Shown piece by piece: positions 54,401 through 57,400 of a stretch of DNA of 64,000 nt. The DNA lies in NCBI GenBank assembly GCA_964633205.1, contig CAZWFN010000007.1, positions 3,002 to 67,001 on the forward strand, read 5' to 3'. This DNA is from an uncultured Myxococcales bacterium. Lineage in GTDB: Bacteria; Myxococcota; B64-G9. Each line of letters starts with the position of its first letter. Position 1 is the stretch's first letter. Made by a program: the position numbers.

Positions 54401-57400
54401 GGTCCAGGCTGCCGCCCAGGCCGTCGCGGCCGTGGCCGCGCAGCACGTGACAGGACAGGCAGCGCTTGCGCTCCAGCTTTTGGAGCAAATCGGCGCCGGG
54501 CGGTGACGCCGGGCGGGCAGCATCCGCCGCCGCCGGCTCGCCAGGGCCGAGCACGGCGTCGACCGGCGGGGCGGGCGGGGCCGGCTGGGGGATGGCCGCC
54601 AGCGCGGCGGCCAGCCCGCGCGCATCGGCGTCGCTCAGCTGGGGGCCCAGCCCCTCCACCTTGGAGCGGGTGACCAGATCGCCGAAGTTGTCCAGGCTGA
54701 GCAGCTCCGGATCGGGCAGCGGCAGCAGCGAGGTGTCGAAGGCCTGCCGGTCCTGGAAGGCGATCTGGAACACCTTGGCCACCGGGAACAGCACCGATAT
54801 GGTGAAGCCGATCAGGAACAGGTGGATCACCACCCGGCCGGTCTTGGTGCGGCCCTGGCTCAATCGAACGCCCCTTCGGTGGCCTTGGTGATGCGGTTGG
54901 TCATCAGGGTGTAGATGAACAGGATGACGAAGATCAGCGTCGAGTAGGCGGCCGCGTAGCCGTAGCGATCACCCCGCTCGAAGGCCCAGCGGAAGGCTTC
55001 GATGACCAGGATGTCGGTCGAGCCGTTGGGCGCGCCGCGGCTGACCAGGTAGATGATATTGAACATGTTGAAGGTCCAGATCGAGCCCATGATGATGGCC
55101 GGAAACAGCGCCGGCTTGAGCAGCGGCAGGGTGATGCGCCGGAACTTCTGCCAGCGGGTGGCGCCGTCCACGTCGGCCGCCTCGTACAGGTCCTGCGGGA
55201 TCGACTGCAGCGCGCCGAGCGAGATCACCATCATGAAGGGAAAGCCCAGCCAGCAATTGGTCACCAGGTTGGCCAGAAAGGCGGTCCCGGTCGACTGCCA
55301 CCAGGAGAAGCCCTCCATGCCCAGCAGGTGGTTGATCACCCCGTCGTCGGCGTCGAACATGCCGCGCCAGATGATGGCGGTGATGTAGTTGGGGATGGCC
55401 CAGGGGATGATCAGCAGCACCCGGTACAGCCCGCGCAGCTTCAGCAGCGGGTCCTTGAGCAGCAGGGCCAGGCCCAGGCCCACCGCCAGGTGGATGAACA
55501 CGTTGAGCCCGGTCCACAGCACGGTGATGAACAGCTTGTAGTAGAAGCTGAAGCTGTCGCTGATGGCGTACTCGCGCGAGGACAGGATGTCGACGAAGTT
55601 CTCGCCGCCGACGTAGAAGTACTCGCCCTGGTAGTAGCGGAAGAAGCCCAGGCCCAGGCCCACCACGAAGGGCACGAACACCAGCAGTCCGATGGCCAGC
55701 ATGGCCGGGCCGATGTAGGCGTATGCGCTGCGCTGCTTCCAGGCCTGGCGCAGCATGCGGCGGAAGCGGCCGAAGAACACCGCGATGAAGATCAGCAGCA
55801 CCAGCAGCGCGCCGCCCAGGCCCCAGAACACCGCCTGGGCGAACTGATCCTCGCCGCCGGCGGTCTTTTTCAGCGCCGAGCCCTTGCGGAAGTCGGCGAT
55901 GCGGTGGGCGGCCTTGCGCTGGGCCTCGGCCAACGCCTGGGCGGGCGTGGCCCGGCCGGCGATGGCCGCGTCGAGCGCCCGGCGCAGCGGCTCCCAGACC
56001 ATGCCCATCTCGGGGTCGGCCCGCATCGGCTCGGCGTACTTGAGCTGCTCGCGGAACACCCCCAGCACCGGGTCGGCCACCGCCTCCGGCTCGCGGTAGA
56101 GCGCCACGTTGGCCACCGTCTGCAGGCCGCGGTGCATGCGCACCCGGGCCGCCTCGTCCGCGGTCAGCCAGTTCATCACGGTAAAGGCCTGCTCCGGATG
56201 GCGCGACGCGGCCGACAGCAGCAGCGCCTCGGTGCCCATGAAGGGCTGGGCGCGCACGCCGGAGAGGTTGATCTCGGGCAGCAGCGCCACCCCGTAGTCC
56301 ACCCCGGCGGCGATCTCGGCCCGGAACCAGGGCCCGTTGATGACCATGGCCGCCCGGCCGGCGTTGAACAGGGTGGTGACCTTGACCGGGTCGACGTCCT
56401 GGGGCAGCAACCCCTCGACCACCAGCCGGCGGACGAAGCGGATCGACTCGGCGTTGGCCGGGGTGTCGAGCCGCAGCTCGCCGTGCGAGTCGAACAGGCC
56501 GCCGCCGAAGCCGAACAGCCAGCAGGCGTGGATGTAGGGATCGGAGTGGTTCCAGACCAGGCCGTAGCTGGCCAGCTCGCCCTCGCCGCCGCCGCTGTGC
56601 CGGCGCGCCAGGACGATCATCTGCTCGGTGTTCTCGGGCGGTCGCTGCAGCGCGTTCTTATCGTAGAACAGCACCGTGGTCTTGTAGGCGGTGGGCAGGC
56701 CGTAGAGCGCCCGCCGGTAGATCAGCGGCTGGATGGTCTTGGAGAAGAAGCGATCGGTGATCGCGTCCGAGACATAGGCCGTCAGCGGCGCGATGTGGCC
56801 CGAATCGGCCCAGCCGCCGATGCGATCGTGGGCGGCGACGAACAGGTCCGGGCCGTGGCCGCGCGGAATGCTGGCGTTGAGCTTGTCCAGGTAGGCGTTG
56901 TAGGGCAGGAAGGACAGATCGATGCGGATGTCGCGGTGCCGGATGTTGAACTCGGTCACCGTGGCCTCGAGCGCCTCGCGCTCGTCGCCGCGGTAGGCGT
57001 GCCACAGCGCGATCTCGACCGGCTCGGCGCGCACCGGCCCGGCCGCGGCCGCCAGCAGCAGGCCTGCCAGCAGGGCCCAGCCGAGGCTGCCGGTGCTGCG
57101 GCTCAAGCGATGGTCTCCCCGGTGCGGGCGTCGAACAGGTGGGCCCGCTCCAGATCGGGCACCAGGTCGATCGCCTCACCCATCTCGGCCGCCGCCTGCG
57201 ACTCCTGGCGCACGGTCAACAGGGTCTCGCCCAGCCGGGCGTAGATCATGGTCTCCGAGCCCATCGGCTCGACCACCTCGACCCGGGCCCGCATCCGCTC
57301 CGGACGCGGCTGCTCGGCGGCCGGCTCGACCGCGAGATGATTGGGCCGCAGCCCGAGCTCCAGCTCGCCGCTGCGTTCGGCCAGCGCCCGCTGCAGCGAG

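Follow-up and report, generated by a model that had tools for sequence, protein, structure and literature searches.

A predicted maltose-family ABC importer of an uncultured Myxococcales bacterium, with its binding protein fused to MalF and a cytochrome c-like insert in MalG

We analyzed a stretch of 64,000 nucleotides (nt), called the window here, from an uncultured Myxococcales bacterium (GenBank assembly GCA_964633205.1, contig CAZWFN010000007.1, positions 3,002 to 67,001). Three consecutive genes on its minus strand, malK, malEF and malG, resemble those for an ATP-binding cassette (ABC) importer of the maltose type (Table 1), and the best NCBIfam models across the proteins of this operon are MalE, MalF, MalG and MalK/UgpC. 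An earlier, sequence-only reading of the window had singled out malEF as coding for one polypeptide of 748 amino acids (aa) that joins a periplasmic substrate-binding protein to a MalF-like transmembrane domain. That description holds. A Pfam scan found the two domains it had led us to expect in a single open reading frame (ORF), each scoring above its cut-off: SBP_bac_1 covers aa 41-320 with 107.5 bits (E = 1.7e-30; cut-off 26), and BPD_transp_1 covers aa 551-739 with 77.9 bits (E = 1e-21; cut-off 26.4).

Table 1. Features of the malK-malEF-malG operon, with positions in the window. TM, transmembrane helix; a slash marks the predicted cleavage site.
Feature	Position	Strand	Description or basis
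malK-type ATPase gene	57103..58188	-	361 aa; ABC_tran + OB_MalK + TOBE_2
malEF fusion gene	54860..57106	-	748 aa, TTG start
Signal peptide of MalEF, aa 1-27	57026..57106	-	AAAAGPVRA/EP; hydrophobic core aa 7-25; cleavage predicted
MalE-like substrate-binding domain, aa 28-405	55892..57025	-	Pfam, NCBIfam and PDB matches
Linker (~20 aa) and extra helix TM0 (aa ~426-444)	55766..55891	-	Hydropathy
MalF-like permease core, aa 448-748	54860..55765	-	NCBIfam, PDB, hydropathy
EAA coupling motif of MalEF, aa 642-661	55124..55183	-	EAADVDGATRWQKFRRITLP
malG	53640..54863	-	407 aa, TTG start overlapping the malEF stop
MalG loop P1 insert, aa 72-194	54282..54650	-	Alignments; absent from 66 distant partners
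Cytochrome c-like module of MalG, aa 118-194	54282..54512	-	Profile comparisons
CLSCH candidate haem-attachment motif (C135, C138, H139)	54447..54461	-	Alignment
Met189, candidate distal haem ligand, ~7 residues before TM2	54297..54299	-	Invariant

The halves of MalEF could be assigned from family models and known structures. The top NCBIfam matches were MalE over aa 74-398 and MalF over aa 498-742. In the PDB, the binding domain matched 2zyk_A (E = 1e-43) and 6ffl_A (E = 1.7e-36 over aa 28-406). We measured this domain at ~380 aa, followed by a ~20-aa linker, which is shorter than the ~430 aa first proposed. The position first estimated for the junction, 55800-55900, agrees with that of the linker and the additional helix TM0. 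TM0 stands out as a Kyte-Doolittle peak of 2.66; a K/R-rich loop (GRFRRMLRQAWKQRS) and then the permease core follow it, and the helix would bring the chain back to the cytoplasm. The permease part matches the MalF NCBIfam model only at positions 264-517, and residues 279-508 of PDB chain 2r6g_F align to MalEF aa 524-739. The counterpart of the P2 loop is just ~40 aa long (aa 487-528), and homology to MalF begins only after the P2 position. The EAA motif that the sequence-only reading had noticed in the permease part, EAADVDGATRWQKFRRITLP, is an exact fit to the consensus EAA-X3-G-X9-I-X-LP, and the EAA motifs of both permeases of the operon are perfect.

The N-terminus of MalEF, MSRSTGS-LGWALLAGLLLAAAAG-PVRA/EP, has, as judged by eye, the n/h/c layout of a Sec signal peptide and the small residues at -3 and -1 that are typical of signals cleaved by signal peptidase I (SPase I). 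Homologues have N-termini equal in length to that of MalEF. The segment might instead stay uncleaved and act as a signal anchor like TM1 of MalF, so that the binding domain would form a giant periplasmic loop tethered at both ends. Hydropathy gives the hydrophobic core a length of 16-19 residues, and in the established topology of Escherichia coli MalF the corresponding stretch consists of TM1, a short loop in the periplasm and TM2, in that order; both points suit an anchor. We nevertheless consider an anchor distinctly unlikely: the PVRA/E c-region obeys the -3/-1 rule of SPase I, the homologues also carry small residues at these positions, and an h-region of 16 residues is short for a stable membrane helix.

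The genes on either side of malEF complete the predicted transporter. The malK product matches ABC_tran in Pfam (E = 7e-31) and scores 486.9 bits with the NCBIfam UgpC subfamily model (cut-off 432) and 447 bits with the MalK model. MalG matches its NCBIfam model with 183.6 bits over aa 201-407, and the top Foldseek matches of its AlphaFold2 model are E. coli MalG chains. As had been claimed, each flanking gene overlaps malEF by 4 nt. The shared sequence is TTGA in both cases, at 57103-57106 between the malK stop and the malEF start (context CGCTTGAGCC) and at 54860-54863 between the malEF stop and the malG start (context CGATTGAGCC). Because both junctions are built alike, with a TTG start codon overlapping the preceding TGA stop, they suggest that translation of MalK, MalEF and MalG is coupled. 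The operon thus encodes what characterizes a CUT1 system: a cognate receptor of the SBP_bac_1 (MalE) class, the BPD_transp_1 fold with the EAA-X3-G-X9-I-X-LP motif in MalEF and in MalG (aa 301-320), and, in the same operon, a MalG-like second permease and a MalK-type ATPase with a C-terminal OB/TOBE domain. We estimate a probability of roughly 85% that malK-malEF-malG encodes a type I (CUT1, maltose-family) ABC importer with its receptor built into the permease. One result weighs against a closer assignment. The equivalog cut-offs of the NCBIfam MalE and MalF models (NF007011, NF008232) lie well above the scores we obtained, which are 144.5 against 291 for MalE and 178.3 against 392 for MalF. 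For this reason we classify the protein as a MalE-MalF-type fusion of the CUT1 family rather than as a strict MalE or MalF equivalog.

A fused ORF of this kind could in principle be an assembly or sequencing artefact, in which a missed indel merged separate malE and malF genes, and relatives with split malE and malF genes in their operons do exist. We used third-position GC as a frame marker, since at ~70% GC the true frame of this sequence is sharply marked. Third-position GC was 0.92-1.00 in one frame over the whole malEF ORF and 0.96-0.98 through the junction (55700-55950). Because it stays high in a single frame across the junction, malEF contains no hidden indel. A database search showed that ~100 of 109 homologues, assembled independently of one another, are fused, with both Pfam domains in one full-length chain at 33-98% identity. 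We also examined genome loci, taken as the best 80 from a scan of GTDB representative genomes, and found the binding protein-like and permease-like parts within one stop-to-stop ORF in 80 of 80. Cultured isolates with a fused locus include Myxococcus xanthus, M. dinghuensis, Pyxidicoccus fallax and two Microbulbifer; fused loci also occur in metagenome-assembled genomes labelled Bradymonadia, Polyangia, Oligoflexia, Elusimicrobiota, Sumerlaeota and rumen Spirochaetales. Finally, one indel cannot interconvert the fused and split forms, because the MalF of the split relatives has ~330 extra N-terminal residues. The chance of an artefact is negligible, and we regard a frameshift as excluded for malEF. 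The frame is continuous, as the sequence-only reading had argued, and orthologues are not consistently split.

The split relatives provide clues to how the fusion arose. Two such operons from related Myxococcota, at loci L084 (3910-9281) and L086 (663-4389), keep the gene order malK-malE-malF-malG. Their binding proteins are 42-43% identical to the corresponding part of the window protein, and their permease cores are 52-53% identical. They differ from the window in that MalE is a protein of its own (423-511 aa), secreted or lipoprotein-like, MalF is longer (595-630 aa) and MalG is plain (282 aa). The MalE of L084 begins with a lipoprotein-like N-terminus (MKRWTIITSVVLACLACG). The permease core is homologous in the two forms from 'YAY-x-PA…' onwards, and the additional N-terminal region of split MalF, which comprises a helix, a periplasmic domain and further helices, is absent from the fused form. 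Given this extra region and the homology of the shared core, sequence comparison identifies the fused gene as a restructured descendant of an adjacent malE-malF pair, rather than as a one-indel variant of it. The fusion probably arose when, in a malK-malE-malF-malG operon of an ancestor, MalE plus one helix took the place of the first ~330 aa of MalF. When fused and split forms are compared, tethering of the receptor accompanies loss of the large N-terminal periplasmic region of MalF. This contrast offers a useful natural experiment on how binding proteins dock onto type I importers.

We compared the window operon to known transporters. In Bdellovibrio bacteriovorus, MalF carries a fused MalE homologue of 388 aa, so that receptor and transporter occur in a fixed 1:1 ratio (PMC6906923). 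According to the same source, Licht et al. (2019, Res Microbiol 170:1-12, pmid 30193862) characterized the structure and function of that transporter. The PDB chain 6ffl_A has 388 aa and bears the name 'Maltose/maltodextrin transport permease homologue'; from its name and length it is probably the Bdellovibrio binding domain. As far as it is summarized there, the Bdellovibrio protein resembles MalEF in carrying a MalE-like domain N-terminal to MalF in one polypeptide of a MalFGK2-type importer, and the 6ffl chain aligns end to end (residues 1-386) with the MalEF binding domain. The two proteins are nonetheless distant in sequence, with the unfused binding proteins 2zyk and 1elj outscoring 6ffl against MalEF. 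Since the Bdellovibrio transporter has already been characterized, the architecture is not new. The fusion is ordinary in its lineage and common in Myxococcota, so the sequence-only reading overstated its novelty when it called such fusions uncommon in CUT1-like systems. Taken alone, the fusion adds little beyond extending a known architecture from Bdellovibrio to many Myxococcota, Bradymonadia, Microbulbifer and other lineages.

The E. coli transporter MalEFGK2 has the same four functional modules as the window operon, the same EAA motifs and a C-terminal regulatory domain in MalK. Its MalE is free in the periplasm, whereas that of the window protein is covalently tethered. E. coli MalF spans the membrane with eight helices and captures MalE by means of a P2 loop of ~180 aa; the window protein has a six-helix core, one linker helix and a loop of ~40 aa. 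The MalG proteins differ as well, that of the window having an additional insert of ~120 aa in loop P1. Receptors tethered to the permease have also been well studied in GlnPQ and OpuA, type I importers of other families (amino acids and compatible solutes). The permeases of these importers are homodimeric, giving two or four receptors per complex, whereas a heterodimer of MalEF and MalG would have exactly one.

These comparisons suggest how the transporter may work. The N-terminus of MalEF would be exported by Sec and its signal peptide probably cleaved. This would place the MalE-like domain in the periplasm, connected by the ~20-residue linker to TM0, which would cross back to the cytoplasm ahead of the six-helix MalF core. 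Assembly of MalEF with MalG and a MalK dimer would yield exactly one tethered receptor per transporter. The binding domain would capture an oligosaccharide, most likely an alpha-glucan such as maltodextrin, close around it and dock on the periplasmic face of MalF/MalG. As in E. coli MalEFGK2, docking would then trigger closure of MalK2 and alternating access driven by ATP. The tether would take on the task of the long P2 loop of MalF, capture of the receptor; here that loop is cut very short.

The substrate is probably a maltodextrin-like oligosaccharide (an alpha-glucan), judging from the residues of the binding site. Equivalents of E. coli MalE Y155, W230 and W340, which provide aromatic stacking, and of the D65/R66 pair are conserved in MalEF. 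Two observations weigh against this assignment and leave the substrate uncertain: other residues stand in place of E. coli W62, E111 and K15 and none corresponds to D14, and the NCBIfam model for the galacto-oligosaccharide protein GanS scores nearly as well as MalE (E = 8.8e-39 against 3.7e-42). There is a real, if lesser, chance that the transporter is genuine and imports something else, such as galacto- or arabinogalactan oligosaccharides, cyclodextrins or prey-derived glycans. The replaced ligand contacts and the close GanS score fit such a substrate. So do the top PDB match of the binding protein, 2zyk, which binds cyclo/maltodextrins, and the JGI family name 'arabinogalactan oligomer/maltooligosaccharide transport system permease'. 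Three points favor an alpha-glucan over these compounds. The aromatic platform and the D65/R66 pair are retained, the characterized Bdellovibrio fusion is described, in the summary cited above, as a maltose/maltodextrin transporter, and at locus L081 a gene for a 303-aa Glucodextran_C protein (3981-4892) lies immediately upstream of malK. The Glucodextran_C neighbor is a weak hint at alpha-glucan substrates; the window has no equivalent gene at this position.

The interest of the operon rests less on the MalEF fusion than on an insert in MalG. The window MalG is 407 aa long. Its counterparts at more distant fused loci, 66 in number, have ~280 aa, and a CxxCH motif occurs in none of them (0/66). 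The insert is located between TM1 and TM2 in loop P1 and has three parts: a conserved helix, a hypervariable low-complexity linker that is acidic or Pro/Ala-rich, and a conserved module of ~75 aa. By homology with E. coli MalG the insert should be periplasmic, on the side of the membrane where the Ccm/Ccs machinery attaches haem. We collected 36 extended MalG proteins (368-407 aa, 63-93% identical), and 35 of them contain CxxCH. An alignment of 33 sequences showed C135, C138, G145, G148, G150, G151, L153, L168, P185, G187, M189 and W195 to be invariant and H139 to be present in 32. One protein, P0148, reads CFACD in place of CFACH, which is either a sequencing error or a natural variant without the proximal His. 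Extended MalG proteins partner the MalEF subclade of at least 65% identity. The two genes are directly adjacent at loci L081 and L083, and in five more MalEF/MalG pairs both members lie on contigs of identical nucleotide count. The pattern suggests that, in the Myxococcota clade of the window, MalG acquired a periplasmic class I cytochrome c-like module in P1.

Homology of this insert to class I cytochromes c is well supported by profile comparisons. When a profile of the module was compared to PDB sequences, 31 of 31 matches were c-type cytochromes; the best match to a single domain was 2l4d, the cytochrome c domain of an SCO1/SenC protein (25.7 bits, E = 1e-4). An exhaustive phmmer search with the module yielded 78 representatives, among which the proteins other than MalG carry one to six modules, and all nine of these relatives that we scanned passed Pfam Cytochrom_C. 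Aligning the module with three stand-alone relatives in hhalign gave a probability of 99.6% (E = 9e-24) over 65 columns, among them those of CxxCH and the distal GAM Met. The module shares with class I cytochromes c (PF00034/PF13442; the stand-alone P0244, P0254 and P0258, and the 2l4d domain) the CxxCH motif, a Gly-rich loop, WL-x-PT-x-x-NA and the distal P-x-GAM Met. It differs from them in being inserted in a permease loop and in running straight into TM2 after the Met, without a C-terminal helix. On the basis of sequence we infer that the MalG insert may bind haem.

Three results count against reading the insert as a cytochrome or are neutral towards it. A direct Pfam scan with the insert alone gave no match at E<=10, the sequence being too divergent for one; the canonical class I C-terminal helix is missing after Met189, with TM2 beginning ~7 residues on; and structural fold searches with the insert returned no significant match. 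The CxxCH motif could instead form a disulfide or a structural metal site, in a loop whose only role would be to let the tethered MalE domain dock. Such a role would be in keeping with the contact that loop P1 of E. coli MalG makes with MalE's N-lobe during the whole transport cycle (PMC6906923), and another class of MalG has a Cys-rich, haem-less P1 insert. We judge this unlikely, because conservation of the two Cys residues is shared by His139 and Met189, the homology to Pfam-positive cytochromes extends over 65 columns and so beyond the motif itself, and no PDB profile match was anything other than a c-type cytochrome.

Several further observations concern the insert. When the MalG N-terminus and the insert together were used to look for homologues, the low-complexity Pro/Ala stretch overwhelmed the search, which yielded only three truncated gene calls. 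The segment upstream of the linker was considered as a degenerate haem-less repeat of the module and rejected (hhalign probability 0.9%). The conserved helix at MalG aa 76-98 (~54570-54638, minus strand), has the pattern LS-x-x-D-x-x-x-LA-x-x-LA and looks like the helix at the C-terminus of stand-alone class I cytochromes. This resemblance hinted at a circularly permuted cytochrome in which that helix is the displaced C-terminal one, but the match was not significant (hhalign E = 0.15). The 64-kb window contains no WWD motifs of Ccm/Ccs proteins and no CxxCH protein besides MalG, although it is too small a sample for either absence to be informative.

As for function, the contact between P1 and the MalE N-lobe in E. 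coli leads us to propose that the module may offer the tethered domain a place to dock, may gate transport by sensing redox state or a ligand, or may do both. A more specific proposal is that MalG carries a covalently haem-loaded class I cytochrome c, linked to TM2 with almost nothing in between, whose redox or ligand state gates sugar uptake or MalE docking, thereby coupling import to the periplasmic electron-transfer pool. We offer this proposal tentatively and think it improbable; if true, it would make this the first ABC importer with an integral c-type haem. Haem binding by itself would connect nutrient uptake by an ABC importer with redox chemistry in the periplasm, a link not reported so far, and would do so within the loop that touches the binding protein. 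Our literature search found no published precedent for an ABC permease or importer with a cytochrome c domain, and no report of a cytochrome c insert in Bdellovibrio MalG in the part of the literature on that transporter that we covered. The conserved insert has apparently not been described before.

Public annotation helps to hide the insert in databases. MalG is started at an internal codon in L082 (8592-9398) and in P0110, P0111 and P0149 (268-282 aa), which drops TM1 and the whole insert; in L083 the gene call for the equivalent region gives 386 aa. MalG proteins of a second class, 600-636 aa long, are extended at the N-terminus by ~230 residues that include several hydrophobic helices, and their P1 insert is a different one, Cys-rich and haem-less (P0184, P0186, P0189, P0195, P0208, P0213, P0216, P0217 and P0224). 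In this family, loop P1 of MalG seems especially prone to acquiring domains.

Downstream of malG, a gene for a 451-aa protein with a Walker-A/AAA match begins after 15 nt on the same strand (52269-53624, minus) and may be co-transcribed with the transporter. A Fic-domain protein is encoded next (51428-52204, minus). The order MalG, 449-aa protein, Fic is repeated in L082 and L083, and a gene for a 449-aa protein also follows MalG in L081. The region contains very long ORFs on both strands (57103-60852, minus; 57139-60888, plus; 55328-57244, plus), which are by-products of high GC. Of the minus-strand ORF at 57103-60852, which is 1249 aa long, just the final 361 codons are malK. We rejected the 638-aa ORF antisense to malEF (55328-57244, plus) as spurious, ascribing it to the high GC. 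Synteny with L082 places a PBP1A-type gene within the plus-strand ORF that ends at 60888.

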